Below, piece after piece: positions 1 through 60,600 of a stretch of DNA of 64,000 nucleotides. The stretch comes from Rhodocyclaceae bacterium (GTDB lineage Bacteria > Pseudomonadota > Gammaproteobacteria > Burkholderiales > Rhodocyclaceae): contig DATJQH010000137.1 of the NCBI GenBank assembly GCA_035505955.1, forward strand, positions 2,325 through 66,324. Reading direction: 5' to 3'. The first letter of the stretch is position 1; each line of letters begins with the position of its first letter. The notes under the pieces are model-generated. The model searched no databases. It saw nothing but the letters and a program-made list of their open reading frames with translations, and was not told the DNA's origin. Both the position numbers and the translations under genes were made by a program.

Positions 1-1023
<1,023 letters not shown>

Positions 1024-1151
1024 GATCGGGCTCCTGAAGTCGCGGCAACGGGAAACAGGACGGAAACGGGGTTGCTAGGCCCGTCCTGATAAACTTGCTG
1101 ATTATAGCTTTCCGCGACGCAACAGGCAATGCCGCCAGTCAATGGCCGACG

Positions 1152-2498: not shown

Positions 2499-2510
2499 TG
2501 CCAAACCTCC

Positions 2511-3086
2511 TTACCTGGACTGGGCGCCGAAATAGCGGGCGGCAGCCGAAACGTCAGCGGGCTTCATCTCGTTTGCCGCCCGCCGCATCTTCCGGTGCGG
2601 CATCTTGAAATCCGCGCTGCGGAACTTCTCGAGTTCCAGCTCCATGTACCTCGACCATTGGCCGTTGATGCGCGGCGCGTCGACATCGGGGTCGTTCCCG
2701 CTGATGCCGTGACAATCCTCGCAGGATTCGGACACGGCCGACCTGCCCTTCTGCATCACGTCCGCCGGAGCACGCTGCGGCGCCGGCACCCAGGGCTGCC
2801 TGGAGAAATAACCGGCCAGTGCGTCGAGCTCATCGTCGCTGAAGCCCTTGACGATGCGGTTCATCGTGACGCCGACGCGTTCATCGTACTTCCACTGCTT
2901 CATGATCCTGGCCAGGTAGTCGCGCGGCAGGCCGCCGATCGATGGCATCGACGGCCCGGCACTGACGCCGCCGACGCCGTGGCAACCGTTGCAGGTGCGC
3001 GCCAGTACCTCGATGTTGTTGTCGTGCGCGGCAGCGCCGCCGACCAGGCCGGCGGTGACAAGCGCGATAAGGGATGTCTTCGACAT
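2511..3086 (-). CDS. fccA: dihaem cytochrome c subunit of flavocytochrome c sulfide dehydrogenase (FccA/SoxE-like)
   Basis: Signal peptide MSKTSLIALVTAGLVGGAAA. Two CXXCH motifs (CNGCH, CEDCH). Adjacent to fccB. The ATG at 3084-3086 has a GGAG 8 nt upstream. Alternative ATGs at 3098 and 3101 would overlap the upstream stop codon. Confidence 0.75.
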   Translation of the reverse strand: MSKTSLIALVTAGLVGGAAAHDNNIEVLARTCNGCHGVGGVSAGPSMPSIGGLPRDYLARIMKQWKYDERVGVTMNRIVKGFSDDELDALAGYFSRQPWVPAPQRAPADVMQKGRSAVSESCEDCHGISGNDPDVDAPRINGQWSRYMELELEKFRSADFKMPHRKMRRAANEMKPADVSAAARYFGAQSR

Positions 3087-3097
3087 GATTTTCTCCA

Positions 3098-5038
3098 TCA
3101 ATGCAGCGTGGCGCGCCCGAACAGCACGAGGGTCAGCAAAGTCAGGCCGGCGATGATCAGCACGCTGGCGAGGAAGGACGCCGCGAGATCGGCGCGTCGC
3201 GAGGGCCGGCGGACCAGATGCTTCTCCAGTTCACCGATCGCAACCAGACGTTCATATTCCAGCCGGTGGTCGTGCTTGAATTCCTCGATCGGAATTTTCC
3301 CCGTGAATATCGTCGTGCTCATCGGGAAGCGTTCCGGCCGGAAGTGCACGTTGAAGAAATGCACGGTGTTCAGGAACACTGCCGCCAGCACCGCTTCCTC
3401 TGCATGCACGAGCGTGGCGATGTTGAACACCCATCCCGGCAACAAAGCGGCCGTCTTCTCGGGGAAGAAGAGGATCAGACCCGACGTGCCGATGATCGTG
3501 GCGCCCCAGAACGGCGCCCAGTAGTCGAAGCGCTGCCAGTAAGTCCAGTGGCAAAACTCGGGCCGCTCGGCACGACCGAAGAACCAGAGGAACATGTTCT
3601 TCATGTCACGCAGGTCGTTCCAGCTCGGAATCATCGAAGTACCGCCGAACCAGTTGAAGGTCCTGCGCCTCTTCCAGATGTTGGCCGCAACGATGACCAG
3701 GTGGATGACGAAGATCGACAGCCAGGTGACCGCCGCCGTGCGGTGGATGATGCCCTCCATCTTCGGCCCCCCCAGGAACTCGACGACCGCCTTGGCCCAG
3801 GCCGTATGCGGGAACAGGAGCGACGTGCCGGTGAGCACCAGCACCATGGTCGCAATCGCGAACAAGGCGTGGATCCAGCGCCACACCGGCGTGAAACGGC
3901 GGAAGTACACGATATCGGGCTGGTCGAGGTTCTCGCGGAAGCCCTTGCCGCGCATGCGGTCCATCACTTCCCGGTACAGCCACAAGAGCACATGCACCCA
4001 GAAGAAAATCATCACACTAAGGATCAGTGCCTGCATGAACTGCTTGGCCCAATACAACCATGGGTATTTCTTCTGGTTGTCCGGGTTGCCGTGCGGCTGG
4101 AATTGAAGGAAGCTCTCGCTCGCCTGCTTGTGGCAGTTGCGGCAGTTCTGCAGGCGATTGGCCACATTGACGTGTGAGGTCGGGTCGTCCTCCTTCTGGA
4201 TGTCGTGACTGCCGTGGCAGTCGAAGCACTTGGCCGTGTTGGTGTAGCCGAGGCGGTTCACCTGGCCGTGATACGAAGCGAAGTAGGTCCGCTGCGCATC
4301 CTCGTGGCAGCTGCCGCAGTTGCGGGTAATCGCCAGTTTCATCGAATCGGCTTTCGGCGAGCCGATGTCGTGGGTCGTATGGCAATCCGAGCAGACCGCC
4401 GATTTCTCGTCCTGCTTGTCCACAATGGCCTTGCCGTGGACCGAAGCGATGTAGGCTTTCTTCTCCTTCTCGTGGCAGCGGCCACAGACTTCGAAGTTCT
4501 TCAGCCGATGCTCCTTGCGCTGCGCAGCACCCGGTACGCCGATGTTGTGGGCGTCGTGGCAATCGTGGCAGGCCGCATTGACGCGCGCCTGGTTCTTCGC
4601 GTTCGGTTTGGCGTGCACCGAGTGCATGTAGTTGTCGGTCTGCTGGACGACGACATCCAGGCGTTCGCGCGCCTTCGGATCGGAATCCTTCTGCGCAGCT
4701 TCCCATTTCTGCCTGTGGCATTCGACGCAACCGATGGCCCCGGCAAGCGGCTTCTTGTGCGGCAGCTTGGTGACGTCCCGGTGGCAACCGGTGCAGGGCA
4801 TCTTGCCGTGCACGCTCGCTTCCAGCACGCCGGTGTCGACGAAGATGTCGCGACGGGTGCCATCGCGATGGATCACCGTCTTCTCGTCCTGATCGGCATG
4901 GCAGCGCAGGCAGCGCTTGTTGGCGATCGGCGCCGCCGCAGCGACTTCCTCCGGTGATACCGAAGCTCCCGCTGAACTCGCCGCGAACAAGGCGAGCACC
5001 CACAACCCCGCGAACACACCCCTGGCATGTCGTGCCAT
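3098..5038 (-). CDS. nine-haem c-type cytochrome fused to a C-terminal multi-TM b-type cytochrome domain (CbcL-like quinone-pool oxidoreductase architecture)
   Basis: Signal peptide plus nine CXXCH motifs (CLRCH, CTGCH, CVECH, CHDCH, CGRCH, CSDCH, CGSCH, CFDCH, CRNCH). About six hydrophobic helices follow, carrying His residues (WIHALFAI, IIHRTAAV..VIHLVIV, TLVHAEE..NTVHFFNVHF). GAGGAG RBS before the ATG at 5038. Confidence 0.8.
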   Translation of the reverse strand: MARHARGVFAGLWVLALFAASSAGASVSPEEVAAAAPIANKRCLRCHADQDEKTVIHRDGTRRDIFVDTGVLEASVHGKMPCTGCHRDVTKLPHKKPLAGAIGCVECHRQKWEAAQKDSDPKARERLDVVVQQTDNYMHSVHAKPNAKNQARVNAACHDCHDAHNIGVPGAAQRKEHRLKNFEVCGRCHEKEKKAYIASVHGKAIVDKQDEKSAVCSDCHTTHDIGSPKADSMKLAITRNCGSCHEDAQRTYFASYHGQVNRLGYTNTAKCFDCHGSHDIQKEDDPTSHVNVANRLQNCRNCHKQASESFLQFQPHGNPDNQKKYPWLYWAKQFMQALILSVMIFFWVHVLLWLYREVMDRMRGKGFRENLDQPDIVYFRRFTPVWRWIHALFAIATMVLVLTGTSLLFPHTAWAKAVVEFLGGPKMEGIIHRTAAVTWLSIFVIHLVIVAANIWKRRRTFNWFGGTSMIPSWNDLRDMKNMFLWFFGRAERPEFCHWTYWQRFDYWAPFWGATIIGTSGLILFFPEKTAALLPGWVFNIATLVHAEEAVLAAVFLNTVHFFNVHFRPERFPMSTTIFTGKIPIEEFKHDHRLEYERLVAIGELEKHLVRRPSRRADLAASFLASVLIIAGLTLLTLVLFGRATLH

Positions 5039-5126
5039 TTTGAATTCTCCTCAGTGTCCCCCCTGCTCCGTACCGGCCATTTGCTGGCCGGACATCGTCT
5101 TGTTCGGGTTATTAAGTAAAGCTTGC

Positions 5127-10469: not shown

Positions 10470-11489
10470 ATGCTCGATCGTCGTGCCCAGTCCTTGCTCA
10501 AGACCCTGATCGAACGGTACATCGTCGAAGGACAACCGGTCGGTTCGCGCACCCTTTCGCGCCATTCCGGGCTCGAACTTTCGCCCGCCACGATCCGCAA
10601 TGTCATGTCGGATCTGGAGGAACTGGGCTTCATCGCCAGCCCGCACACGTCTGCCGGCAGGATACCGACACCCAAGGGCTACCGGCTGTTCGTGGATACA
10701 TTGCTCACGGTACAGCCCCTGGGACGCCATCAGATATCGGAAATTCGCGAGGCAATCCAGCCCGACCAGCCCCAGCGGCTGATCAGCCATGCCTCGCAAT
10801 TGCTCTCGGAACTGACCCATTTCGCCGGCGTCGTCGTGGCGCCGCGACGGCAGTTGCCGCGCATCAGGCAGATCGAGTTCCTCAGTCTCTCGGACACGCG
10901 CATCCTGCTCATCATCGTCACCAGCGAAGGGGACGTGCAGAACCGGATCCTCTTCACGCAGCGCCGCTATACGCAGGCCGAGCTCGCGACGGCGGCAAAC
11001 ATCCTGACCGAGCATTTCGCAGGCCTCGACTTCCAGCAGATCCGCCTGCGCCTTCAGGACGAACTGAAACAACTGCGTTCCGACATGGTCGAGCTGATGA
11101 GCGCCGCGGTCGAGGCGGGAAGCGAGGCGGTTGCGGATGCGGGCGCACAGTACGTGATCAGCGGCGAGCGGAACCTGCTCGGCGTCGAGGACCTGTCGTC
11201 GAACATGGACCGCCTGCGCCGCCTGTTCGACCTCTTCGAGCGGAAGACCGGGCTCATGGAACTCCTCGACCTGTCGAGCCGGGCCGACGGCGTGCAAGTT
11301 TTCATCGGCGGCGAATCCGGCATTGCCTCGCTGGACGAATGCAGCGTCGTTGCCGCACCGTACGAGGTCGATGGCGAAGTAATCGGGACGATCGGCGTCA
11401 TCGGGCCCACGCGCATGGCCTACGAGCGCGTGATCCCGATCGTGGACATCACGGCAAGACTCCTGGCCAGCGCCCTGTCGGCTCCGTGA
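10470..11489 (+). CDS. hrcA: heat-inducible transcription repressor HrcA
   Basis: [30 protein letters not shown] winged-helix N-terminus and [26 protein letters not shown]-terminal motifs. Confidence 0.9.
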
Positions 11490-12472: not shown

Positions 12473-12811
12473 TCAACGATCCCAGTGGAACGTGTGCAAC
12501 ACACGGTGCAAGACCGGCGTGACGATGATGGCTGCCGTAACGATGAACACGAGTCCCGCATACAGCGCATAGGCGCCGGCGAACAGCTTGCCTGCGTCGG
12601 TTTGTGGAGCGTTGACCGGGCCCATGCCGCCGAGCAGCATGGCGGCGTTCAGGAACGCGTCAAGCCAGCCAAAGCCCTCGGTCACCACGTACCCGATCAT
12701 GCCAATGGCAAGCGAGATCGACAGAAACACCATGGCGACAGCGACATGACCTGCAACACGCCGTACAAAACTGCCCCGCGATACCGGTGGTTGCCTACTG
12801 GATTCGTACAC
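12473..12811 (-). CDS. small two-TM membrane protein with an ion-channel-pore-like layout (function unknown)
   Basis: Two hydrophobic helices flank WLDAFLNAAMLLGGMGPV, giving a TM / pore-helix-like / TM arrangement. GTG start; the start position is uncertain. Confidence 0.5.
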   Translation of the reverse strand: MYESSRQPPVSRGSFVRRVAGHVAVAMVFLSISLAIGMIGYVVTEGFGWLDAFLNAAMLLGGMGPVNAPQTDAGKLFAGAYALYAGLVFIVTAAIIVTPVLHRVLHTFHWDR

Positions 12812-12973
12812 AATTGTGCGGCTTCGAGTCGTCTATCTGCAACAATGTAGCGCAAGCGCGGCGGTCGAAAACGTTTCATGCGCGCGGCCACATAACTTTC
12901 GCGATATAGTCTCACTGCTAAGATGGTTGCGGTCAATTGCTCGGTTGATGACCGCCCCAAGAGGGAGAAAGCT

Positions 12974-13420
12974 GTGAACAGAACGATATTGCTGGTCGAA
13001 GACAACCCCGACGACGAGTTCCTGGCTCTGCGGGCCTTGCACAAGAACAATGTCGCGAACGAGGTCATCGTCGCGCGCGACGGACTGGAAGCGCTGGAGT
13101 ACCTGTTCGGCGAGGGTGCACGGGCAGGCAAACCGCCCTTGCAACCGGAAGTGATCCTGCTGGATCTAAAACTGCCCAAGATCGACGGGATCGAAGTTCT
13201 ACGCCGGGTACGCGCGGACGAACGCACGCGCCGCATCCCAACCGTGATCCTGACCACTTCGGGCGAAACAGTGGACATCGAGGCCAGTTACGACAACGGC
13301 TGCAACAGCTACATTCGCAAGCCCGTTGATTTCGAGCAGTTCATCGAGGCCGTGCGCCAACTGGGCCTTTACTGGCTGGTCCTCAACAAGACGGCACAGT
13401 CCGACACGCTCGCTTCCTGA
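12974..13420 (+). CDS. single-domain CheY-like response regulator
   Basis: ILLVEDNPDDE...ILLDLKLPKIDG...YIRKP receiver motifs. The GTG at 12974 is preceded by AGGGAG; the tracked ATG at 12923 is also possible. Confidence 0.85.
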   Translation: MNRTILLVEDNPDDEFLALRALHKNNVANEVIVARDGLEALEYLFGEGARAGKPPLQPEVILLDLKLPKIDGIEVLRRVRADERTRRIPTVILTTSGETVDIEASYDNGCNSYIRKPVDFEQFIEAVRQLGLYWLVLNKTAQSDTLAS

Positions 13421-13425
13421 CCGGC

Positions 13426-15141
13426 ATGCCGGAAGGCCTCATCAAGCTGCTGTTCGCCGAGGACGTCGAGGACGACGTCGTCCTCATCCTGCGCGAACTG
13501 CGCCGGAACGGACTGCGGGTCGAGCACCAGCGAGTAGACTCCGCAGCGACAATGCGCGCCGCGCTTGCCGCGCACGATTGGGATGTCGTCATCACCGATC
13601 ACAACATGCCCGGATTCGATTCGGGCGCCGCCCTGGAGATCGTGCGCCGCCACGACCCGGACCTGCCGGTGATCATCGTCTCGGGCACCATCGGCGAAGA
13701 AATGGCCGTCGAGGCCATGCGCATGGGTGCAAAAGACTACATCATGAAGAACAACCTGCGTCGCCTCGTGCCCGCGATAAGGCGCGAACTCGACGACGCG
13801 GGCGCCCGGCAAGCCCGGCGCAGCGCCGAAGCGGCGATCCAGCATCTGGCCATGCACGATGCCCTGACCGGGCTGCGCAACCGCGCCAGTTTTCTCGCGG
13901 CGCTGGAAGGCCTGCTGAATCAAGCCCGACACGAGGACGGGCAGCACAGCCTGCTGTTTCTCGACCTGGACCAGTTCAAGATCGTCAATGACACTTGCGG
14001 CCACCTCGCGGGCGACGAGATGCTCAAGCAACTGTCGGAAGTGCTGCACCGGCCGATCCGCGGCAGTGACCTTCTGGCGCGCGTCGGCGGTGACGAATTC
14101 TGCATCCTGCTGGAAAACTGCGTGCTGGACCGGGCTCGCAGTGTCGCCGAAACCTTGCGCACGGCGGTCCATGATTTTCGCTTCCTGTGGAATGGCAAAG
14201 TGTTTTCGGTCGGCGTCAGCATCGGCATCGTCGCCATCGACAAGCACAGCGGCAGCGCCAACGACATCCTGAGCGCAGCCGACATGGCCTGTTACGCGGC
14301 CAAGGATCGCGGTCGGGACGCCATCCACGTCTATGAGCGCAATGACCAGGAAATGACCCGCCGCCGCGGCGAAATGGACTGGGTGAGCCGCATCGACGAT
14401 GCCTTGCACGCCAACCGTTTTCGCCTGTGGCGCCAGCCGATACGTCTGCTTGGCGGTGTCGGAGGGATTCACCATTACGAACTGCTGCTGCGCATGCTCG
14501 ACCCGGACGGCAATGTCGTGCTGCCCGGCGCCTTCCTGCCCGCGGCGGAACGCTACGACCGCATGCGCGACATCGACCGCTGGGTGATCGACAATGGGCT
14601 GCGATACATTGGAACCCACCGGGAGTCGGGGGACCAGTTCCACGCGATCAACCTGTCTGGCGGCTCCCTGAGCGACGACAGCCTGCGCGAATTCGTCGGC
14701 GACCGGATCGCAGCGTATGGCGTCGATCCGCGCGGCATCTGCTTCGAGATCACGGAAACGGTCGCCATCGGGAACTTCCAGGCCGCAGTCGATTTCATGC
14801 AAAACCTGCGCGGCATCGGCTGCCGTTTCGCGCTGGACGATTTCGGCAGCGGGCTGAGTTCGTTCGCATACTTGAAGTCACTGCCCGTCGACTTCATCAA
14901 GATCGACGGCAAGTTCATCCGCAACCTGCGCAGCGATCCCATGGACCGGGCGATCGTCGAAGCCATCCACCGCGTTGCACACGTTGCCAGCCTGCGCACG
15001 ATCGCCGAATTCGTGGAGGATTCGGCCCTGATCGACATCCTCGAAGGGATCGGGGTTGACTTCGCGCAGGGATACGGCGTCGGCCGGCCGGAACCCCTGC
15101 AAATCCCGGAACGAACCATCGCGGCCACTGCAACTTCCTAG
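13426..15141 (+). CDS. response regulator with receiver, GGDEF and EAL domains (c-di-GMP turnover)
   Basis: Receiver domain (VITDHNMPGFDG). Intact GGDEF (ARVGGDEFCILL). EAL-domain motifs (YELLLRM, EITETV, DDFGSG, IKIDG, EGIGVDFAQGY). Confidence 0.9.
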   Translation: MPEGLIKLLFAEDVEDDVVLILRELRRNGLRVEHQRVDSAATMRAALAAHDWDVVITDHNMPGFDSGAALEIVRRHDPDLPVIIVSGTIGEEMAVEAMRMGAKDYIMKNNLRRLVPAIRRELDDAGARQARRSAEAAIQHLAMHDALTGLRNRASFLAALEGLLNQARHEDGQHSLLFLDLDQFKIVNDTCGHLAGDEMLKQLSEVLHRPIRGSDLLARVGGDEFCILLENCVLDRARSVAETLRTAVHDFRFLWNGKVFSVGVSIGIVAIDKHSGSANDILSAADMACYAAKDRGRDAIHVYERNDQEMTRRRGEMDWVSRIDDALHANRFRLWRQPIRLLGGVGGIHHYELLLRMLDPDGNVVLPGAFLPAAERYDRMRDIDRWVIDNGLRYIGTHRESGDQFHAINLSGGSLSDDSLREFVGDRIAAYGVDPRGICFEITETVAIGNFQAAVDFMQNLRGIGCRFALDDFGSGLSSFAYLKSLPVDFIKIDGKFIRNLRSDPMDRAIVEAIHRVAHVASLRTIAEFVEDSALIDILEGIGVDFAQGYGVGRPEPLQIPERTIAATATS

Positions 15142-15166
15142 GACCGGGTCGAGGGAGGAAGAGCAG

Positions 15167-17305
15167 ATGAGGACCGATCCCCGCCACGCGTTACATGTCT
15201 TCCTCCTGGCCGCCTGCGCACTGCCCGCCGCGGCCCACGCGGATGATCCGATCTTGCTCATGTTGTCTGGCGACGAGCAACTCGTCAGCATCGCAACGGG
15301 ATCGCCGCGACCCGTATCGAAAGCTCCATCGGTCGCCACGGTCATTACTGCGGACGACATCAAGGCCACAGGCGCCACCACGTTGAGCGAGATCCTCGAG
15401 ACGGTACCCGGCGTGCATGTGTCGCGCAATGGCTTCCTTTGGCAACCGCTGTATTCGATCCGGGGCATTCTTACCGCCAATAACCCGGAAGTGCTTGTAC
15501 TGATCAACGGCATTCCAATCACCAGCGGGTTTTACGGCGATCGAGGTCGGATGATCGTAGACCTGCCGCTGGAGAGTGTATCTAGGATCGAGGTCATACG
15601 CGGACCCGGCTCGGCCCTGTATGGCGCCGAAGCGGTGTCCGGCGTCATCAATATTGTCACCAAGACAGCCGGGGAGATCGACGGCACGGAATCGGGCTTG
15701 CGCGCGGGCTCGTTCGAGACTTACGACGCCTGGGTGCAGCATGGTGGCCGCTGGAGTGAAGTCAACGTTGCCGGTTATCTGCACCTGGGTTCGACGGAGG
15801 GTTATCGCCGCACAATCGCTGCCGACGCACAGACTGCTCTCGACAGGACTTTCGGCACCCACGCTTCGCTTGCGCCTGGACCGCTGAACGTCGGTCGCGA
15901 CAGCATCGATGCCCGCCTCGACTTGTCCGGCGACAAATGGCGCTTCCGCGTAGGCTACATCGACCGCAACCATGCACAAACCGGCACGGGAGTCGCGGAC
16001 GCGCTCGATCCGCTGACCGAAGGGCACGGTACCTACACCAGTGCCGACCTCACCTGGCACGACGCCAGGTTCACCGAAAACTGGTCAGTCACCGCGCAGG
16101 CTAGCTACTACGACATCGCAGAGGAAAACACCGATGTCACATTGTTCCCGGCCGGCTCGGCATTGCCCCTTGCACTCCCCGGTGGCACAGGGTCGTCCAT
16201 CGGCATGGTCGGACGGCCGCAGCACTGGGAACGCCAGGAGCGCCTGAGCATTTCCGGCCTCTATGGCGGATTCGAGAAGCACAAGCTGCGCCTCGGAGCG
16301 GGCTACAACTTCGACGACCTGTACAAGGTCACCGAGACCAAGAACTTCACGTACATGAACGTTCCTGGCATCGGCTACGTGCCGGTCTGCGTGGACCTTG
16401 CATGTTCGATGGTCACGGCCACACAGGCCAACGGCCTCCTGTTCCTCGCGCCGCATTCGCGCAACTTGCTCTATGCGTACGCTCAGGACGAATGGTCCCT
16501 GGCGCCCGACTGGACCCTGACCGCGGGGGTGCGCCGCGACGACTACTCCGATTTCGGCGGCACCACCAACCCGCGCGTCGCGCTGGTCTGGGATACGGCC
16601 TACAACCTGACCACCAAGCTCATGGTCGGCCGCGCGTTCCGCGCACCCTCGTTCGTCGAGTTGTATGACATCAACAACCCGGCCGCGCTGGGCAACCCGG
16701 AACTGAAGCCGGAAGCCATCGACACGACGGAACTGGCGTTCGCCTGGCAGGCAAGGCCCGGGCTGCGGACCGGCCTCAGTATGTTCCACTACCGGATGCG
16801 GGATGTCATCCGCCTGACGGCAAACGCCGACCCGACAACCGGGAGCACGTTCCGGAACGCCGGCGCGCAGACCGGCAATGGCTTCGAACTGGAGTTCACC
16901 TGGGACGCCGCGACGGACGTGAAGTTGTCCGGCAACTATGCCTACCAGCGGTCGATAGACGAAACCACCCATCAGGATGCGGGACTGGCGCCGCACAACC
17001 GCGTCTACTTGCGCGCCGACTGGGCGTTCGCCGCCGGCTGGACGATCTCCGGGCAAGTCAATCGCGTTGCCGATCGCAAGCGCCAGGCGGGCGACACGCG
17101 CGCGCCGATCGCCGACTACACGACGACTGACTTGACCCTGCGGACGACTAAGCTGCACAAGGACGTTGAACTCGCCTTTTCGGTGCGCAACCTGTTCAAC
17201 GTCGACGCGCGCGAACCAACCGCGGCGGCGGCGGCCATCAATCTGCCCTACGACCTGCCGCTGCCCCGACGCAGCTTCTTCGCCGAACTGACGTACCGAT
17301 TGTGA
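15167..17305 (+). CDS. TonB-dependent outer membrane receptor (paralog 1)
   Basis: Signal peptide ending AAAHA. Plug motifs (VITADDIKATGATTLSEILETVPGVHV, IEVIRGPGSALYGAEAVSGVINIVTK) and a long beta-barrel region. ATG at 15167 with a GAGGGAGG RBS. Confidence 0.85.
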   Translation: MRTDPRHALHVFLLAACALPAAAHADDPILLMLSGDEQLVSIATGSPRPVSKAPSVATVITADDIKATGATTLSEILETVPGVHVSRNGFLWQPLYSIRGILTANNPEVLVLINGIPITSGFYGDRGRMIVDLPLESVSRIEVIRGPGSALYGAEAVSGVINIVTKTAGEIDGTESGLRAGSFETYDAWVQHGGRWSEVNVAGYLHLGSTEGYRRTIAADAQTALDRTFGTHASLAPGPLNVGRDSIDARLDLSGDKWRFRVGYIDRNHAQTGTGVADALDPLTEGHGTYTSADLTWHDARFTENWSVTAQASYYDIAEENTDVTLFPAGSALPLALPGGTGSSIGMVGRPQHWERQERLSISGLYGGFEKHKLRLGAGYNFDDLYKVTETKNFTYMNVPGIGYVPVCVDLACSMVTATQANGLLFLAPHSRNLLYAYAQDEWSLAPDWTLTAGVRRDDYSDFGGTTNPRVALVWDTAYNLTTKLMVGRAFRAPSFVELYDINNPAALGNPELKPEAIDTTELAFAWQARPGLRTGLSMFHYRMRDVIRLTANADPTTGSTFRNAGAQTGNGFELEFTWDAATDVKLSGNYAYQRSIDETTHQDAGLAPHNRVYLRADWAFAAGWTISGQVNRVADRKRQAGDTRAPIADYTTTDLTLRTTKLHKDVELAFSVRNLFNVDAREPTAAAAAINLPYDLPLPRRSFFAELTYRL

Positions 17306-19533
17306 CCCGCAGACACCACATACCCGGGCTGGCGGATCACCACGAACGCGACGCGGAAACGTCGCTTGGTGGCGTCCGTCGTCCGGACGCAAGAGCGCGT
17401 CTGACCGGGCTCATCGCCTTGGCACTCCGACTGCCCTGTCTGTTCCTGGTTGTCGCAGCCGCCCTGCCGCATCAGGCGCGCGCCGAAGATCCTCTTCTGC
17501 TGATGCTCTCGGGCGACGAACAGCTCGTCAGCATCGCCACCGGCACGCCGCAGCCGGTGTCCAAGGCGCCCTCGGTCGCGACCGTTATCACGGCCGCCGA
17601 CATCAAGGCGACCGGCGCCACCGATCTGAGCGAAATACTGGAGACCGTGCCGGGCCTTCACGTCTCCCGCAATGGCTTCTTGTGGCAGCCTATCTACTCA
17701 ATTCGTGGCATCTCCACGCAATTCAATCCGGAAGTGTTAATCCTGCTCAATGGCATTCCGATCACGAACGGCTTCTACGGTAATCGCGGTAACCAGATGG
17801 GCGGTTTCCCGGTCGATCATGTTTCCCGCATCGAGGTGATACGCGGCCCGGGTTCGGCGCTGTACGGCGCGGAGGCAGTATCCGGGGTTATCAACATCGT
17901 CACGAAGACCGCCAACGAGATCGACGGCACCGAGTTCGGGCTGCGCGCCGGCTCCTTCGACACTTACGACGGTTGGGTCCAACACGGCGGCCGAGTCGGT
18001 GAGGTCGATGTCGCCGCCTACCTGCGACTGGGCCACACCGACGGTTTCCGCCGCACGATCGAAGCGGACGCCCAGACCGCACTCGATAGCGCGTTCGGCA
18101 CCCACGCGTCCCATGCGCCGGGGCAAATCAATACCGGTTACGACTCTATCGACGCGCGTCTCGATTTGTCTTTCGATAAATGGCGTTTTCGCACCGGATA
18201 CATCGGACGGCCAAACCTGGAAATGGGAGCCGGCGTTGCCGATGCGCTCGACCCCACGACCAAGTCCGACGCCCACTATGCCAACGCCGATCTCACCTGG
18301 CATGACGCCAAGTTCAGCCAAGACTGGGATGTTACCGCGCAGGCCAGCTACTACGATATTGCCGAGACCAACAGCGACGTCACCCTGTTTCCGGCCGGCT
18401 CGGCGTTGCCATTGCCGCTGCCCGGCGGCACGGGTTCCACTATTGGCATGGTCGGCAGACCCCAGCACTGGGAGCGGCAGGAGCGGCTGAGCCTGTCCGG
18501 ACTCTACGGCGGACTCGAAAGGCACAAGCTGCGCGTCGGAGCCGGCTACAACGTGGACGATTTGTACAAGACCACGGAAACCAAGAACTTCACCTTCGCG
18601 GGCGGCGTGCCAGTGTGCATAAACCTCGACTGCTCGATGGTCACGGCCACCGAGGCCAACGGGCTGCTGTTCCTGTCGCCGCATCTGCGTCGCTCCTACT
18701 ACGCATACGCCCAGGACGAATGGTTTTTCGCGCCGGACTGGACCCTGACCGCCGGTTTGCGCCACGACCGCTATTCCGATTTCGGCGGCACGACCAATCC
18801 GCGCCTCGCCGTCGTCTGGGATACGGCCTACAATCTGACCACCAAGCTGATGTTCGGCCGCGCCTTCCGAGCGCCTACGTTCGTCGAGTTGTATACCGTC
18901 AACAACCCGGCGTCGCGCGGCAATCCCGACCTGAAGCCGGAAACCATAGACACTACCGAACTGGCCTTCGCCTGGCAGGCCCAGCCCAATCTTAAGACGG
19001 GCCTCAACCTGTTCCACTACCGGATGCAGGACGTGATCCGGTACGTTGCCAATGCCGACCCCTCCACCGGCAGCACTGCGCAGAACGCGGGCGACCAGCA
19101 TGGCAGCGGCTTCGAACTGGAATTCGCGTGGGACGCAACTGCCGACATTCGGCTCCTGGGCAACTATGCCTATCAGCGTTCCATCGACGAGAACACCAAC
19201 CAGGATGCCGGTTTGGCGCCACATCACCACGCCTACCTGCGGACAGACTGGCGCTTCGTTCCCGGCTGGACGCTCTCAGGCCAGGTCAATTACGTAGCTG
19301 ACCGCAAACGCCAGGCCGGCGACACGCGCCCGCAGATTGCCGACTACACGACCGCCGACCTGACGCTGCGCACCAATCGGCTGCACAAGGATCTTGAGCT
19401 TGCCTTGTCGGTCCGCAACCTGTTCGACGCCAACGCCCGCGAGCCGACCTCCGGCGCCGCTGCGGTCAACATCCCTTTCGACCTGCCGCTGCCCGGACGA
19501 AGCTACTTCGCCGAACTGCGGTATCGCTTGTAG
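17302..19533 (+). CDS. TonB-dependent outer membrane receptor (paralog 2, tandem duplicate)
   Basis: Collinear with the upstream receptor, with long identical blocks (LLMLSGDEQLVSIATG, IEVIRGPGSALYGAEAVSGVINIVTKTA, MVGRPQHWERQERLS). GTG start overlaps the previous stop (GTGA). The exact start is uncertain. Confidence 0.8.
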   Translation: MTRRHHIPGLADHHERDAETSLGGVRRPDARARLTGLIALALRLPCLFLVVAAALPHQARAEDPLLLMLSGDEQLVSIATGTPQPVSKAPSVATVITAADIKATGATDLSEILETVPGLHVSRNGFLWQPIYSIRGISTQFNPEVLILLNGIPITNGFYGNRGNQMGGFPVDHVSRIEVIRGPGSALYGAEAVSGVINIVTKTANEIDGTEFGLRAGSFDTYDGWVQHGGRVGEVDVAAYLRLGHTDGFRRTIEADAQTALDSAFGTHASHAPGQINTGYDSIDARLDLSFDKWRFRTGYIGRPNLEMGAGVADALDPTTKSDAHYANADLTWHDAKFSQDWDVTAQASYYDIAETNSDVTLFPAGSALPLPLPGGTGSTIGMVGRPQHWERQERLSLSGLYGGLERHKLRVGAGYNVDDLYKTTETKNFTFAGGVPVCINLDCSMVTATEANGLLFLSPHLRRSYYAYAQDEWFFAPDWTLTAGLRHDRYSDFGGTTNPRLAVVWDTAYNLTTKLMFGRAFRAPTFVELYTVNNPASRGNPDLKPETIDTTELAFAWQAQPNLKTGLNLFHYRMQDVIRYVANADPSTGSTAQNAGDQHGSGFELEFAWDATADIRLLGNYAYQRSIDENTNQDAGLAPHHHAYLRTDWRFVPGWTLSGQVNYVADRKRQAGDTRPQIADYTTADLTLRTNRLHKDLELALSVRNLFDANAREPTSGAAAVNIPFDLPLPGRSYFAELRYRL

Positions 19534-19537
19534 CCGC

Positions 19538-20467
19538 ATGACCCGATTCGGTCGCCTCATCGCCATCGTTGCCTTGCTGGCCAGTCTTCTGGCCTGCGGC
19601 GACGCGCTTGCGCAGACGCGAATCGCCGTTCTCTTCCCGGACTCGGCGCCGGCCGTGACGAAGCTCTATCGCACGATCATCGATGGGATGGCCACCGCGG
19701 GCGACGTACGCATCGAGAGCCGCGCCGTTTCCGAAAGTGCCTCGCCGGACGAGATAAAGGCCTGGGTGCTCGAGCAGCGCAGTCATGCAATGGTGATTCT
19801 CGGCGACGTCCCGCCGGCATCGCTGGAGTCCTTGCCTGCCACGATGACCATGGTCCGCGGTGCCAGCGCGCTGAATGACAACGCGCAATCCGGCGTCAGC
19901 CTCGCCTCGAGTCCCGCCCAGGTATTCAACCGCCTGCGCCAGATCAAGCCCGACGTTGAACGCCTGTTCGTCGTCTACCGGCCGCAGAGCACGGGCTGGC
20001 TGCTGGCTGCCGCACGCGCGGCCGCCCGCGACATTGGGCTGGAACTCAATGCGAGCGCCTGTGACGACGTGCAGCAGTCCGTCGCCGCGTTTGGTCGCAT
20101 CCTGCAACAGGCCCGCCCTGGCAAGGACGCGATCTGGCTCACGCTTGACCCCGTCGTGCCGATCAACCAAATGTTGCCGGTCCTGTTGCGCGAATCGTGG
20201 GACAGGCATCTGCTGCTGGTTTCGAACAATCCAATGGACGTCGCGAAGGGCGCGCTCTTCGCGCTCTATCCGGACTATCCCGCCATGGGCCGCCAACTCG
20301 CCGAACGGGTCAAGCGCCAGATCGCGCGGCCCGCCCTGAGCGGTCCCGAACCCAGCGAGCGCCTGCGCAGCGCCATCAATGTGCGCACTGCCTCTCACCT
20401 TGGCATCGTGCCCGGCGAACGCGAACTGCAGGGATTCGACCGCGTCTTTCCGGAGGAGCAGCGCTGA
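19538..20467 (+). CDS. periplasmic substrate-binding-like lipoprotein (ABC_sub_bind / COG2984-like) with no cognate permease or ATPase
   Basis: Lipobox LLASLLAC. Two-lobe layout with RLFVVYRPQS..GLEL...DAIWLTLDPVV...GALFALYPDY...INVRTASHLGIVP, matching my recollection of the ABC_sub_bind family. Start at the ATG at 19538, not the tracked 19394. Confidence 0.6.
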   Translation: MTRFGRLIAIVALLASLLACGDALAQTRIAVLFPDSAPAVTKLYRTIIDGMATAGDVRIESRAVSESASPDEIKAWVLEQRSHAMVILGDVPPASLESLPATMTMVRGASALNDNAQSGVSLASSPAQVFNRLRQIKPDVERLFVVYRPQSTGWLLAAARAAARDIGLELNASACDDVQQSVAAFGRILQQARPGKDAIWLTLDPVVPINQMLPVLLRESWDRHLLLVSNNPMDVAKGALFALYPDYPAMGRQLAERVKRQIARPALSGPEPSERLRSAINVRTASHLGIVPGERELQGFDRVFPEEQR

Positions 20468-21978
20468 TGAGGCCGCGCCTGGCCCACCTGTTACGGCGTC
20501 TCAGCGTGCGCCAGACGCTCATGCTCGGCATATTGCCGATGACGCTGATCGGGGCGCTGGCGGTTGGCCTGATCGCTGCAGCACTGTCGACGGAGGAAGT
20601 GGCGGCGTACCACTTGCGCGCCGGAGAACAAATGACGGCGACACTCGCTCAGCGCAGCGATCTCGCCCTGCTCTACGAGAGCAGCGTCGGCATCGCAGAA
20701 ATCGCCAACTCCTTCTTCGACAATCCGCTGGTCAAGGAAATTCGAGTGGTCGGACTGCGCGGCAATGTCCTGTTCGCGAAGACGAGCGGCAAGGAGGGCC
20801 TGTGGCAATACCCCGTAGCGCCGGCGGAAAGCACGGCGACCAGGGAATTGGACGACGTCTGGGTATTCTCGCGGCTCGTGCGCACGGCGCGCCCGGCAAC
20901 CGTCAATCCCGAACTGCCGGAAGCCGCGCTGCTCGGCGGCACGGGCGACGAAATCCTCGGCGAAGTGCACCTCGCTCTGAGCAAGGAAGCGCTGTTCAAG
21001 ACCCGCCGCAGCATCTTCTTTGGCAACATGTTCGTGGCGCTGGGATTCTCTCTGCTGGCCGTGGCCGCAACGCTCTTGATCGTGCGCAACTTCAGCCGGC
21101 CACTCGAGTCGTTGGCCGACTCCATGCACGAGGCGCGCACCGGCCGCTGGACCGATCCGCCGACACTCGACGGCCCGCGGGAAATCCGCGACATCGGCGA
21201 AAGTTACCAGGCGCTGATGAAAACGCTGCGCCAGCGCGAGGAGGAACTGCGCGACTTCAACCAGGACCTGGAAGACCGCATCCGGCAGCGGACGCAGGCG
21301 CTGGAAGCCGCGAACAAGGAACTGGAAGCATTCAGCTACTCCGCTTCGCACGACCTGCGCGCGCCGCTGCGCGCTATCGACGGCTTCGGCAAGGCGCTGA
21401 TGGAGGACTACGGCAGCGGCCTTGACCCCACGGCGCTGGAATACCTGCAGCGCATGCGGGCGGGGGCGAGCCGCATGAGCGAACTCATCGACGACATGCT
21501 GAGGCTTTCACGCATCACGCGCTACGAGATGCAGGTGGTCGAACTCGACATGAGCGAACTGGCGGAAGACATCGCCAAGGTGGTACGTGACCGCAATCCG
21601 GGGCGACAAGTCGACTTCCGCGTCACGCCAGGAATGTACGTCCACGCCGACCCGAATCTGCTGCGCATCGCTCTCGATAATTTGCTCGACAACGCATGGA
21701 AGTACACAAGCAAAGTCGCCGAGGCGCACATCGACTTCGGCTGGACGCTCCAAAATCACGACATCGTGTATGTGTTGCACGACAACGGCGCCGGATTCGA
21801 CATGCGCTTCGCCGACAAGCTGTTCGGCGCCTTCCAGAGACTCCATGGCAAGGAATTCGAGGGCACCGGCATCGGCCTCGCCATCGTCCAGCGCATCATG
21901 ATCCGCCACGGCGGACACATCTGGGCCGATGCCGAAGTCGACAAGGGCGCAACCTTCTACTTCACGCTGCCCGACTGA
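20467..21978 (+). CDS. membrane sensor histidine kinase (periplasmic domain, HAMP, HisKA, HATPase_c)
   Basis: Two TM segments flank a roughly 190-aa periplasmic region. H-box FSYSASHDLRAPLRAI, N-box DNLLDNAWKY, and G-boxes HDNGAGFD / GTGIGLAIV. ATG overlaps the upstream stop (ATGA). Confidence 0.85.
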   Translation: MRPRLAHLLRRLSVRQTLMLGILPMTLIGALAVGLIAAALSTEEVAAYHLRAGEQMTATLAQRSDLALLYESSVGIAEIANSFFDNPLVKEIRVVGLRGNVLFAKTSGKEGLWQYPVAPAESTATRELDDVWVFSRLVRTARPATVNPELPEAALLGGTGDEILGEVHLALSKEALFKTRRSIFFGNMFVALGFSLLAVAATLLIVRNFSRPLESLADSMHEARTGRWTDPPTLDGPREIRDIGESYQALMKTLRQREEELRDFNQDLEDRIRQRTQALEAANKELEAFSYSASHDLRAPLRAIDGFGKALMEDYGSGLDPTALEYLQRMRAGASRMSELIDDMLRLSRITRYEMQVVELDMSELAEDIAKVVRDRNPGRQVDFRVTPGMYVHADPNLLRIALDNLLDNAWKYTSKVAEAHIDFGWTLQNHDIVYVLHDNGAGFDMRFADKLFGAFQRLHGKEFEGTGIGLAIVQRIMIRHGGHIWADAEVDKGATFYFTLPD

Positions 21979-22008
21979 ACGCCAAAGCCGTTCGCGGCGG
22001 GCGGTAGA

Positions 22009-23319
22009 ATGCGGTCCATGCAAGACCCGCTCCTCCGGCGCAGCCTCGCTGCCGTCTGGCATCCCTGCACGCAGATGAAGCAGCACGACACCGGCGACCT
22101 GCCGCTATTGCCGGTCGCCCAGGGCGAAGGCCCCTGGCTGATCGGGACCGACGGCCAGCGCTGGCTCGATGGCATCAGCTCCTGGTGGGTCAACCTCTTT
22201 GGCCACTGCAATCCGCGCATCAACGCCGCCCTGCGCGAGCAACTCGATACGCTCGAACACGTGCTGCTTGCCGGCTGCACCCACGAGCCCGTGGTCGCGC
22301 TTTCCGAGCGGCTGACGCGCCTCGCGGGCGGCGAACTCGGGCACTGCTTCTACGGCTCCGACGGCGCCTCGGCGACGGAGATCGCCCTCAAGATGTCCGC
22401 GCATTACTGGCGCAATACGGGCCAGCCGGGCAAGAACGGCTTCCTTTGTCTCGCCGGCGGTTATCACGGGGAGACGGCGGGCGCGCTCGGCGTGACTGAC
22501 ATCGCCATCTTCCGCGATGCCTACGCGCCGCTGATCCGCGCCGCCACAGTGCTGCCCTCACCTGATGCGCGACTGGGCCCCGACGCGACACGACTCGCCG
22601 TCGACGCGCTGGCAGCGCATCTCGCGGCACATCACGCCGAGATTGCGGCGCTGATCGTCGAACCGCTGGTGCAATGTGCCGCCGGCATGGCCATGCACGA
22701 GCCGGACTACCTGAGCCAGGCGCGCGCGCTGTGCGACCGCTACGAGGTGCACCTGATCGCGGACGAGATCGCAGTGGGCTTCGGCCGCACCGGCACGTTC
22801 TTCGCACACGAGCAGGCAAATATCCGGCCCGACTTCCTGTGCCTGTCCAAGGGGATCACCGGCGGCTACCTGCCGCTCTCCGTCGTCATGACGCGCGACG
22901 CGATCTACCGCGCCTTTCTCGACGACGCCACGGCGCGCGGCTTCCTGCATTCGCACTCCTACACCGGCAACCCGTTGGCCTGTCGCGCTGCGCTGGCGAC
23001 GCTCGACATCTTCGAACAGGACGATGCCCTCGCCGTCAACGCGCGCCGCGGCGACCGCATCGACGCGCTGTTGCGGCCACTCGCGGAACACCCGCAAGTG
23101 CGCCACTACCGCCGGCGCGGCATGATCTTCGCTTTCGATGTCGACAGCGACCCGGACTTCGGCCGTCGTTTCTATCGCGCCGCACTGGCGCGCGGCGTGC
23201 TGCTGCGCCCGATCGGAAGTACGGTCTATCTGATGCCGCCCTACGTGCTCACCGACGCCGAGATCGAACACCTGTGCCGCGGTGCCGGGGAAGCGCTCGC
23301 CGAGGCGCTGCGCCCATGA
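22009..23319 (+). CDS. bioA: adenosylmethionine-8-amino-7-oxononanoate aminotransferase
   Basis: Class-III aminotransferase with HLIADEIAVGFGRTG and LSKGITGGYLPLS (PLP lysine). First gene of the bio cluster. Confidence 0.9.
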   Translation: MRSMQDPLLRRSLAAVWHPCTQMKQHDTGDLPLLPVAQGEGPWLIGTDGQRWLDGISSWWVNLFGHCNPRINAALREQLDTLEHVLLAGCTHEPVVALSERLTRLAGGELGHCFYGSDGASATEIALKMSAHYWRNTGQPGKNGFLCLAGGYHGETAGALGVTDIAIFRDAYAPLIRAATVLPSPDARLGPDATRLAVDALAAHLAAHHAEIAALIVEPLVQCAAGMAMHEPDYLSQARALCDRYEVHLIADEIAVGFGRTGTFFAHEQANIRPDFLCLSKGITGGYLPLSVVMTRDAIYRAFLDDATARGFLHSHSYTGNPLACRAALATLDIFEQDDALAVNARRGDRIDALLRPLAEHPQVRHYRRRGMIFAFDVDSDPDFGRRFYRAALARGVLLRPIGSTVYLMPPYVLTDAEIEHLCRGAGEALAEALRP

Positions 23320-29401: not shown

Positions 29402-29980
29402 ATGCAGGATACCGACAAAGAAACCCCTTCCCTTGCTCAAGCCGAGCCGGCAGCTGCCGTTGCCGGCGAGTCCTCTGCCGACCAGCCGGAAACCCTGCCC
29501 AGCCTGGCGGAGCTCCTCAAGGCGGCTGAACTGAAGGCCGCCGAGCACCACGATGCCTGGCTGCGCGCCAAGGCTGAATCCGAGAACATCCGTCGCCGCG
29601 CCCAGGAGGACATCGCCAAGGCCGGCAAGTTCGCCGCGGAGAAGTTCGCGGCCGAACTGCTGGCCGTCAAGGACAGCCTCGAAGCGGCACTGGCCAACCA
29701 GGACCAGAACGCCGAGGCGCTGAAAAGCGGTGTCGAACTGACGCTGCGGCAGTTGATCGCCGCTTTCGAGAAATCGAACGTGAAGGAGATCAATCCGCTC
29801 GACGAGAAGTTCGACCCGCACCGCCACCAGGCGATCAGCCAGGTCGAGGCCGAGGGCGAGCCGAACCGCGTCATCAACGTGCTGCAGAAGGGCTACGCGC
29901 TGCACGAGCGCATCCTGCGCCCGGCGCTGGTGGTTGTTTCCCGGGCAAGAGTCAGCCCCGACGGTACGCCAAGCGCTTGA
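29402..29980 (+). CDS. grpE: nucleotide exchange factor GrpE
   Basis: Coiled-coil N-terminus, FDPHRHQAI, and [21 protein letters not shown]-terminal motifs. Confidence 0.9.
29947..29974 (+). repeat. dispersed word copy C (last codons of grpE): AAGAGTCAGCCCCGACGGTACGCCAAGC
   Basis: Exact AGTCAG-N10-ACGCC plus the AAGC flank. Confidence 0.7.
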
Positions 29981-30003
29981 ATCGCGGCCGTATAACCCCA
30001 TAT
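29976..30003 (+). promoter_or_regulatory. sigma-32 (RpoH) heat-shock promoter upstream of dnaK
   Basis: CTTGAAT-N13-CCCCATAT. The -35 element overlaps the grpE stop codon. Confidence 0.7.
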
Positions 30004-30038
30004 CCGATACAGATCAATCTTCAACGAAGGACACCAAC

Positions 30039-31973
<1,935 letters not shown>

Positions 31974-32074
31974 GACGGACGCTCACGCGCCGTCCTAACT
32001 GGCCGAGTTGAAGCGGACGGGCAGATCGCCGCTTGACTCGGCCACACCGTTTGATGGTCTCGAAATGATTTGAC

Positions 32075-33211
<1,137 letters not shown>

Positions 33212-39351: not shown

Positions 39352-40266
39352 CTACAGAACCGCGTCGCGCTCGATGCCGGCGTGCATCAACTGCCGGCGC
39401 AGCTGGCCCAGCGCTTCGAGCTGGATCTGGCGCACACGCTCGCGCGTGACGCCGAGGTCGTTGGCCAGGGTCTCAAGCGTGGCAACGTCGGTGCCATTGA
39501 GGCCGTAGCGGCGTTCGATCACGTGGCGCTGCTTGTCCGACAGCCGTGCCACCCACTCCGCAATGCGACGCTCGAGCTCGGCCTGTTCCAGCCGGTAGTC
39601 GGGTGCGGCCGTGCCGTCGTCGGCAATCGCGTCGGCCACTGACAGGTCGGGATCGACTTCCAGCGGCGCGTCGAGCGAGGCGGTGCGTTCGTTGTAGGAC
39701 AACAGGTGCCGCACTTCCTCGACCGGCCGGTCGATCAGGCGCGATACGGCGATCGCGTCGCCGTGATGATCGGGGGCCTCGGCCGACTCCAGGTGGCGCA
39801 GGGCGCGCAACACCAGGTTGAGTTCCTTCACCACGTGCACCGGCAGGCGGATGGTGCGCGACTGGTTCATGATGGCGCGCTCGACGTTCTGGCGCACCCA
39901 CCAGGTCGCGTAGGTCGAGAAGCGGAAGCCGCGCTCGGGATCGAATTTCTCCAGCGCGTGGATCAGGCCGAGGTTACCCTCTTCGATCAGGTCGTCGAGC
40001 GGAATGCCGCGATGCTGGTAGTGCTTGGCGATGCTCACGACCAAGCGTAGGTTCGCCTCGATCATGCGCTGCCTGGCCGTGAAATCGCCGGCGCGCATCG
40101 CCCGCGACAGCCTCAGTTCCTCCCTCGGCGACAGCAGCGGGTTCGCGCCGAGTTCGTTCAGGTAGAGCTGCGTGACGTCGTCGATGAACTCGACTTCGCC
40201 GCCATCGCCGCCAGCCTCTTCGACTTCGGCGATGTCGGGATCGACCGGGAAGGCATCGTCATTCAT
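39352..40266 (-). CDS. rpoS: RNA polymerase sigma factor RpoS
   Basis: Sigma-70 regions 2-4 ([30 protein letters not shown]; C-terminal [12 protein letters not shown]). Immediately downstream of nlpD with an ATGA overlap. The tracked 5' extension to 40629 lies inside nlpD. Confidence 0.85.
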
Positions 40267-60541: not shown

Positions 60542-60552
60542 GTTGCAAGCTC

Positions 60553-60594
60553 CAGAAGCAGAAACAGGGCGCCTCGTGAACGCAGGCGCCCTGT
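60553..60594 (-). terminator. perfect 11-bp stem hairpin downstream of tRNA-Val and upstream of thrS
   Basis: ACAGGGCGCCT-N9-AGGCGCCCTGT, followed on the minus strand by TTCTGCTTCTG. Confidence 0.5.
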
Positions 60595-60600
60595 CGGATT

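Follow-up and report, generated by a model that had tools for sequence, protein, structure and literature searches.

What a bacterium would do with an outer-membrane receptor, a binding protein lacking any transporter, and a kinase encoded side by side is the question raised by six plus-strand genes (12974-21978) of a Rhodocyclaceae metagenome-assembled genome, from which we analysed a 64-kb stretch of contig DATJQH010000137.1 (hereafter the window; G+C ~65%). The genes encode a stand-alone receiver, a REC-GGDEF-EAL response regulator, two TonB-dependent receptors (TBDRs), an orphan periplasmic solute-binding protein (SBP), and a sensor histidine kinase (HK), a domain content that an earlier note had read from the DNA letters and that Pfam bore out. 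The SBP was 100% identical to an NCBI protein labelled 'MAG TPA: Rhodocyclaceae bacterium'. Comparison with related loci indicates that this is neither a chance cluster nor a nutrient-uptake operon: orphan SBP, kinase and TBDR belong to a conserved sensory module with an output in cyclic di-GMP (c-di-GMP).

Conservation of the receptor, binding protein and sensor genes

The survey of genomic co-occurrence that the earlier note had called for came out in favour of a stable association. When one genome from each GTDB species was scanned by pattern and tblastn, 396 stretches encoding relatives of the SBP were recovered, while an exhaustive SBP profile search returned 530 clusters (50% identity) at E <=1e-30. 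The relatives belonged mostly to Betaproteobacteria (Rhodocyclaceae, Sulfuricella, Gallionella/Ferrigenium, Thiobacillus, Dechloromonas/Azonexus, Oxalobacteraceae, and Aquabacterium), and were also present in Chromatiales-type Gammaproteobacteria. We mapped domains on 84 loci by phmmer, using the window proteins as queries, and cross-checked six loci by independent Pfam annotation. Directly downstream of the SBP, 81 of the 84 loci encoded a membrane sensor that has HAMP and shares its periplasmic domain with the window kinase; several sensors that the single-sequence search missed showed the same motifs by eye. A TBDR was directly adjacent in 47 of the 84, and 57 had one somewhere in the 8-kb flanks; its place in the gene order varied, and it occurred on both strands. 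All of these neighbouring receptors fell into a single clade, with scores of 400-1400 bits to the window TBDR, and on this sequence relationship the TBDR near the module is one orthologous clade tied to it. Since the arrangement recurs in dozens of distant genomes, it is far beyond what chance would produce.

The proposal that the output is c-di-GMP was upheld by the architecture of most relatives, in which the kinase is fused to REC-Hpt-REC-GGDEF-EAL or the sensor domain is joined directly to GGDEF-EAL. Specifically, fused HK-REC-(Hpt)-REC-GGDEF-EAL sensors of ~1,500 aa were present in ~46 loci, proteins with the layout sCache_4-HAMP-GGDEF-EAL and no kinase at all in four (L016, L074, L082, L089), and HK-REC hybrids in a few. 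The split version, with kinase, stand-alone receiver and REC-GGDEF-EAL protein as separate genes, was found in L001, L002, L006, L007, L009, and L012, which together with the window form one clade. Because the transmitters and receivers of the split and fused clades are not orthologous, the part comprising the TBDR, the SBP and sCache_4-HAMP has recombined with different transmitters and travels as a unit, and such recombination is the signature of a sensory module.

The SBP was confirmed to have no ABC partner in its cluster, as had been claimed from the window. An open reading frame (ORF) with Walker A and LSGGQ motifs was found neither in the window nor beside the SBP in 85 loci; the Pfam-annotated contexts likewise showed no ABC ATPase adjoining the SBP. 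Within 1.3 Mb of flanks only two ORFs carried an ABC ATPase signature, both of them with two nucleotide-binding domains, on the opposite strand and >4 kb away, and no inner-membrane transporter was present in any related locus.

The Oxalobacteraceae loci (Massilia, Janthinobacterium, Rugamonas, Pseudoduganella) had an arrangement of their own, in which two tandem SBP paralogues precede a fused sensor (L032, L036, L039, L041-L043, L047-L049, L054, L058, L059, L063, L064, and further L067, L070, L071, L073, L079, L085). In this family the TBDR was usually not within 8 kb; in L064 and L073 it was downstream of the sensor.

A candidate route from receptor to c-di-GMP

We favour, with a probability of about 0.55, a three-compartment sensory module that runs from the TBDR through the SBP and the kinase to the REC-GGDEF-EAL protein and c-di-GMP. 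A dedicated TBDR, duplicated in the window, would admit a specific small molecule across the outer membrane, and the soluble orphan PF04392-type SBP would capture it in the periplasm, with no inner-membrane transporter attached. Either loaded or unloaded, the SBP would then dock on the single-Cache periplasmic domain of the kinase, which would be switched through its HAMP domain. The kinase would phosphorylate the REC-GGDEF-EAL protein, and probably also the stand-alone receiver as a phosphate sink or adaptor, so that the balance of c-di-GMP synthesis and hydrolysis would shift the cell between sessile and motile behaviour. Conserved linkage and characterised precedents are what suggest TBDR import, ligand binding by the SBP, its contact with the sensor, phosphotransfer, and whichever sign the response may have.

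At the centre of this route stands the SBP (19538-20467, plus strand, 309 aa), a divergent PF04392 protein of the type-I periplasmic binding protein (PBP) class. Its earlier assignment to the PF04392 type was only partly sustained by Pfam, since the window protein scored 17.9 bits against a cutoff of 25.9, but was supported by profile search and fold: a family profile matched the PF04392 structures 3LKV and 3LFT in the PDB at E ~2e-11, and the AlphaFold2 (AF2) model (predicted local distance difference test, pLDDT, 91.4; predicted template modelling score, pTM, 0.83) had a complete two-lobe type-I PBP fold. In addition, many homologues of 57-70% identity carry a precomputed PF04392 match, while NCBIfam returned 0 matches to a specific family. 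The top five Foldseek hits were chains of 3LFT (L-Trp), 3LKV, 6HNI, and 6HNJ (CD0873), all at probability 1.00; identity to these structures was 11-19%, such that neither ligand nor pocket residues can be transferred to the window SBP. The description of the SBP as a lipoprotein had to be abandoned, as the Cys of 'LLAC' is not conserved whereas an AxA|(E/Q)TR signal-peptidase I site is, and we consider it probably a soluble periplasmic protein on these sequence features.

The sensor histidine kinase (20467-21978, plus strand, 503 aa; Pfam HAMP, HisKA, HATPase) has, by hydropathy and Pfam, a first transmembrane (TM) helix at residues 17-40, a periplasmic region at ~41-182, and a second TM helix at 183-206, followed by HAMP, HisKA and HATPase. 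The periplasmic domain is thus ~140 aa (residues 41-182 between the two TM helices), and not the roughly 190 aa given before. The kinase core is complete (H295, N405, G1 at 439, G2 at 466), and the transmitter is of a bacteriophytochrome-like class without REC or Hpt. Although the window kinase itself gave no match to PF09984 (sCache_4) even at E 10, homologous sensor domains straddled the 22.1-bit cutoff (L074, 23.5; L016, 22.4; L004, 20.3), and a faint match was recorded in L089. An hhalign comparison of a 67-sequence alignment with residues 1-250 of Escherichia coli BarA was collinear over 233 columns with a probability of 96% and E 4.6e-9, a score to which the TM and HAMP segments contribute. 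The AF2 model of the periplasmic domain (pLDDT 84.7) showed five strands besides a long N-terminal helix and a C-terminal one that continues into TM2. Foldseek matched it to WalK, CdgS9/LapD, and CitA, with only the top match at E <1e-3; the best was the WalK-YycH model and the second a partner-binding LapD-type domain. Profile and model comparisons together point to a BarA/GacS-type single-Cache domain (sCache_4) with PDC topology.

The rival that survives best, one we hold to be unlikely, has the single-Cache domain of the kinase bind the ligand directly, with the SBP as an accessory buffer or scavenger, or as a ligand-independent modulator like YycH/YycI for WalK. Cache/PDC domains such as CitA, itself among the fold matches, typically bind small molecules, the WalK-YycH and LapD-type matches offer precedent for direct ligand binding as well as for protein partnering, and the sensor domain has strongly conserved motifs of its own, e.g., LAxQSxLALLYxSxxNA. 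Against it, 81 of 84 loci keep the SBP beside the sensor and Oxalobacteraceae have even duplicated it, which argues that the SBP is the specificity determinant; the SBP has also kept a complete two-lobe PBP fold. Moreover, we know of no ligand for any sCache_4 domain. The only description of the family, also named DUF2222, is as the part of BarA/GacS/VarA kinases that acts as their sensory module (PMC4822843).

Less probable still is nutrient or metal-chelate uptake, in which the TBDR and SBP would feed an unlinked ABC transporter and the signalling genes would be merely co-located or co-regulated. The known ligands of PF04392 proteins are L-Trp, L-Tyr, and L-Phe, all bound by the SBPs of ABC transporters (PMC10443332), TBDRs are classically nutrient importers, and the visible portion of the genome is 64 kb only. 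However, neither a permease nor an ATPase adjoins the SBP in any of more than 85 loci, and the sensor, rather than a transporter, is its invariant neighbour. Furthermore, the cluster has no DNA-binding regulator that could control uptake genes, and the sensor-output fusions point to c-di-GMP.

Both TBDRs carry a Plug (PF07715) and a barrel (PF00593) domain. TBDR1 (15167-17305, plus strand, 712 aa) consists of a signal peptide, the conserved N-terminus DDPILLMLSGDEQLVSIATG, in which EQLVSIA is the probable TonB box, the plug, and a 22-strand barrel. TBDR2 (17302-19533, plus strand, 743 aa if the start is GTG 17302) is 77% identical to TBDR1 over 702 aa, so that of the two receptors reported for the cluster both are real genes, while the second is only a recent tandem duplicate of the first. 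This duplication is common to the window, L001, L006, and L007 and is absent from L002, L009, and L012; L026 also has two receptors. The start of TBDR2 is ambiguous: GTG 17302 would give a presequence of 61 aa, compared with signal peptides of ~25 aa in homologues, and the alternative TTG 17419 would leave a 113-nt gap. The closest solved relative of the window TBDR was CirA at 100 bits, characterised TBDRs scored <=100 bits, and in NCBIfam neither receptor reached the cutoff of a specific family, all scores being far below.

The receptors were confirmed to lack an N-terminal signalling extension, Pfam finding Plug from ~residue 50 and the barrel only, with no STN domain. Nor was an extracytoplasmic function (ECF) sigma/anti-sigma pair present between 9.5 and 26.5 kb; the sole sigma factor in the window (39352-40629, with regions 1.2, 2, and 4) is 17 kb from the cluster. 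Because both defining features of FecA/FecR/FecI signalling were tested and were absent, the cluster is not of that type, in agreement with the earlier view. The mature N-termini of the receptors are encoded at window positions 15239-15300 and 17482-17540. Directly ahead of the plug is a conserved D/E-x-L/F-V-S-I/V-A-T-G, and in the window clade the segment (D/E)(D/E)P-x-LLMLSGDEQLVSIATG-x-P-x-PVSKAPS, which includes the probable TonB box, is almost invariant; an extra conserved LLMLSGD stretch lies upstream of that box. The weakest rival, occupancy signalling without import, in which a ligand-bound TBDR would expose its N-terminal segment (LLMLSGDEQLVS...) for the SBP to bind and relay to the kinase (a FecA/FecR-like logic built from different parts), could draw on the unusual conservation of the mature TBDR N-terminus upstream of and including the TonB box, and on the frequent translational coupling of the TBDR, SBP and sensor genes, but is very improbable given that the TBDR is dispensable in many loci and varies in position and strand, that the SBP keeps its full ligand-binding PBP architecture, and that binding of a PBP to a TonB-box region has no precedent.

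At the output end of the favoured sensory route, the REC-GGDEF-EAL protein (13426-15141, plus strand, 571 aa; Pfam REC, GGDEF, EAL) has its receiver aspartate at D58, an I-site RGSD five residues before GGDEF (221), and a full EAL set (ELL at 352, N409, E441/E444, DDFGSG at 471, K492, E528/E531, Q548). All of these motifs are kept in 6 orthologues, and we consider it on these motifs the putative c-di-GMP output enzyme, with both catalytic domains apparently intact and both activities plausible. The stand-alone receiver (12974-13420, plus strand, 148 aa with a GTG start, a length shared with its homologues) is CheY/Rcp1-like (PF00072, E 1e-17) with visible receiver motifs (acidic pocket E9-D10, D64 in LLDL, T94/T95, K116), and probably serves the kinase as a second phospho-acceptor, in the role of sink or adaptor. 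Its orthologues in L001, L002, L006, L007, L009, and L012 scored 233-281 bits. We also considered the stand-alone receiver as a counterpart of REC1 in the fused relatives and rejected this, the REC domains of the two clades matching at only 14-38 bits. Pfam found no DNA-binding domain in either receiver protein. Kinase, receiver and REC-GGDEF-EAL genes co-occur in all of the complete loci of the window clade (L001, L002, L006, L007, L009, L012), and this strict co-occurrence, together with the fusions in the sister clade, suggests phosphotransfer from the kinase to the REC-GGDEF-EAL protein.

Several observations weigh against the proposed route from TBDR to c-di-GMP. All of the evidence for it is genomic or comes from structural prediction, and small ligands are usually bound by Cache domains directly. 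The window SBP falls below the Pfam threshold of its presumed family, and the D-N of 'IDN' in 3LFT is D-P/S/A in the SBP, whose pocket is therefore unlike that of aromatic-amino-acid binders. About one quarter of the loci (Oxalobacteraceae) have a second SBP and no TBDR within 8 kb, which means that the TBDR is not obligatory, with the qualification that flank limits cause an undercount. Finally, three genes separate the kinase from the REC-GGDEF-EAL gene, and the operon structure is deduced from gene packing, with the biotin gene bioA following without a terminator.

Candidate ligand pathway and the setting of the cluster

At least 39 of 87 loci couple the module to a set of genes for cytoplasmic enzymes (the cassette), and 27 of these have all three genes; contig ends and the length of the flanks limit the counts. 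Its members are an acetolactate-synthase-like thiamine diphosphate (ThDP or TPP) enzyme, an optional short-chain dehydrogenase/reductase (SDR), and two citryl-CoA-lyase-like paralogues (cclA, cclB). The closest solved relatives of the ThDP enzyme were BbmA (E 3e-83) and CsmA (E 4e-69), on which a literature search yielded nothing useful. The citryl-CoA-lyase-like proteins, ~270-285 aa, are distant members of their family, far below the NCBIfam cutoff for PRK06224 (PDB relative 6HXP). The canonical order is TPP-(SDR)-cclA-cclB-TBDR-SBP-sensor without spare room, as in L038, L052, L083, L087, and L088 (cassette at 1209-5539 in L038, at 1115-4659 and 6999-8974 in L087, and at 2018-6522 in L088). 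In L082, L065, and L068, the enzyme genes are divergent from the SBP-sensor pair, and a sulfotransferase gene is added in L017, L040, and L087, the last of which also has an adenosine 5'-phosphosulfate (APS) kinase. In the window's own clade, L012 has TPP-SDR-cclA-cclB (3-3599) directly upstream of the receiver gene. The 64-kb window held no homologues of the cassette enzymes.

Because the cassette is co-operonic with the module in most relatives, we consider the ligand most likely to be a product, and less likely a substrate, of the cassette pathway, a view that likewise derives from gene neighbourhood. A biosynthetic reading fits the missing inner-membrane importer; an exporter is equally missing, and the cassette may instead have a catabolic role in degrading the ligand. 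The product might be a hydroxy-polycarboxylate, an acyloin-type metabolite, or a metallophore. An extension of this idea, which we regard as speculative and doubtful, is that the module would be the receiving side of TonB-dependent chemical communication, in which the cassette would make a secreted molecule, the TBDR would re-import it to the periplasm only, and the SBP and sCache_4 sensor would read it out as c-di-GMP, with the window organism a listener to its neighbours' compound. If true, this would be the first BarA/GacS-type sensor domain with an input defined via a binding-protein partner.

As previously reported, the six genes are tightly packed, with intergenic gaps of 5, 25, and 4 nt and a GTGA overlap at 17302. 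The SBP/kinase junction had been given as a 4-nt ATGA overlap at 20467; it is in fact TGATG, a 1-nt overlap with ATG 20467, and translational coupling of the SBP and sensor genes is kept in L001 and L002. Packing is in line with the claim of a single transcript, but only 30 nt (21979-22008) separate the kinase stop from the start of bioA (22009-23319, plus strand; Aminotran_3), the first gene of a biotin operon and a neighbour outside the module. No terminator-like hairpin was detected between the two genes, so packing alone does not set the 3' end of the operon, and some transcription of the sensor cluster may continue into the biotin genes. The bioA-kinase adjacency is also seen in L001 and L007 and is absent in L002, L006, and L012.

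At the 5' end, a likely promoter and leader (12895-12973, plus strand) contains a conserved block and the Shine-Dalgarno sequence AGGGAGAA. The block, ACTTTCG-N-GATATA(G/T)T at 12895-12910, is conserved upstream of the receiver gene in an alignment of the window with L007, L009, and L006 and includes a -10-like TATAGT (12905-12910); the GTG start of the receiver gene and the AGGGAGAA ribosome-binding site before it are both kept in the nearest relatives. This conservation makes a promoter in front of the receiver gene likely. A scan for consensus sigma-70 promoters and terminators gave nothing above shuffled expectation in 11.4-27 kb, and Rfam gave no riboswitch or leader near the cluster.

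The cluster is flanked upstream by nadK (minus strand), hrcA, and hemH (9.5-12.5 kb) and downstream by bioA, bioF, and bioD from 22.0 kb. A minus-strand ORF between hemH and the cluster (12473-12811) specifies a hydrophobic product (~86-112 aa) for which two membrane helices are predicted. The cluster, hemH, the biotin genes, and a gene for a methyl-accepting chemotaxis protein (MCP) lie within the ~18 kb that separate hrcA (10470-11489) from grpE-dnaK-dnaJ (29402-33211). Gene order between these heat-shock genes is the same in L001, and the insertion therefore predates the divergence of these lineages.

Elsewhere, the window holds cysS, pheST, thrS, and a fatty-acid beta-oxidation set with fadL. 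The longest thrS ORF (58625-60640) shares its 5' end with a transfer RNA (tRNA; 60604-60677, minus strand), and the true thrS start is on that account probably downstream of the mechanical ORF call. On the minus strand at 1152-5050, a flavocytochrome c sulfide dehydrogenase (flavoprotein and dihaem subunit) adjoins a nine-haem cytochrome of 650 aa, in which nine CXXCH motifs occur and MtrC/MtrF-like domains are weakly matched. This suggests that the host is capable of sulfide oxidation and possibly of electron transfer in the periplasm or outside the cell. At 62656-63867 (minus strand) lies the gene of another c-di-GMP response regulator (REC-GGDEF, 403 aa), with no kinase beside it; this protein is possibly a further phospho-acceptor in the same network.

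Relation to known systems

Networks of c-di-GMP have many enzymes and few known inputs, and in this module family the input pathway can be read from the genome as a receptor, a binding protein, a sensor and, often, a candidate ligand pathway. TonB-dependent import here seems to serve sensing and not nutrition, since no inner-membrane transporter is attached. The family spans sulfur- and iron-oxidising and denitrifying Betaproteobacteria, Oxalobacteraceae, and Chromatiales, and includes culturable relatives (Dechloromonas, Massilia, Janthinobacterium, Noviherbaspirillum, Aquabacterium) in which experiments are feasible. Moreover, the BarA/GacS sensor type, whose natural signal is obscure, is paired here with an obligatory binding protein, which suggests a testable signal route.

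Literature searches on PF04392/COG2984, on sCache_4/DUF2222, and on TBDRs with c-di-GMP or citryl-CoA lyase found no description of this arrangement. The statement that no characterised example exists thus stood for the exact combination but not for its principles, precedents for which are PfeA/PfeS/PfeR (PMC8001512) and NspS-MbaA and ScrB-ScrC (PMC8050422). In PfeA/PfeS-PfeR and PirA/PirS-PirR of Pseudomonas aeruginosa, as in the window, a TBDR without an STN domain adjoins a two-component system with no ECF/anti-sigma pair (PMC8001512). For PfeA/PfeS-PfeR, it is characterised that the TBDR carries the ligand across the outer membrane and that the inner-membrane kinase of the two-component system then senses it in the periplasm (PMC8001512). 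Unlike the window cluster, that system has no SBP co-sensor, a different sensor-domain family, and a real iron-uptake pathway; PfeR is a DNA-binding regulator that induces uptake genes, whereas the window receivers have no DNA-binding domain and an output in c-di-GMP. Import followed by periplasmic sensing has a further analogue in the Bacteroides SusC/D systems with hybrid two-component sensors.

The pairing of an orphan SBP with a membrane sensor has its own precedents. In NspS-MbaA of Vibrio cholerae and ScrB-ScrC of V. parahaemolyticus, an orphan SBP encoded beside a Cache-like membrane protein controls GGDEF-EAL activity and biofilm formation (PMC8050422), and the relatives that join an SBP to sCache_4-HAMP-GGDEF-EAL (L016, L074, L082, L089) have the same two-gene logic as NspS-MbaA. 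Those SBPs, however, are SBP_bac_8 and SBP_bac_3 proteins, with a dCache-like sensor and no TBDR, whereas the window SBP is PF04392-like, and the window places a histidine kinase and two receivers between sensor and enzyme. In TorT-TorS, LuxP-LuxQ, ChvE-VirA, and CBP-ChiS, an SBP encoded beside a kinase is the ligand-binding subunit (PMC8050422). This group differs from the window in having no PF04392 SBP and no sCache_4 (PMC8050422 Table 1), no dedicated TBDR, and transcriptional outputs; the same review tabulates neither a PF04392 SBP nor an sCache_4 sensor and never mentions TonB.

With BarA/GacS/VarA/LetS the window kinase shares the N-terminal layout TM-sCache_4(DUF2222)-TM-HAMP (PMC4822843). 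The fused relatives also share the BarA-type tripartite HK-REC-Hpt core, whereas the window kinase has neither REC nor Hpt. Beside BarA/GacS there is neither an SBP nor a TBDR, and their signal goes to UvrY/GacA and small RNAs. FecA-FecR-FecI is alike in that an outer-membrane TBDR heads a trans-envelope signalling route, and unlike in its STN domain, anti-sigma factor, and ECF sigma factor, all absent from the window cluster. Control of a c-di-GMP response regulator by a kinase, as proposed here, is known from RavS-RavR, PdeK-PdeR, Lpl0330-Lpl0329, and ArrS-ArrR (PMC6707612, PMC11841396), the kinases of which sense via cytoplasmic PAS or other domains, none being described with a TBDR or SBP partner. 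With its so far undescribed pairing of a PF04392 SBP and an sCache_4 sensor with a dedicated TBDR clade, the cluster is best filed as a combination of three known principles.

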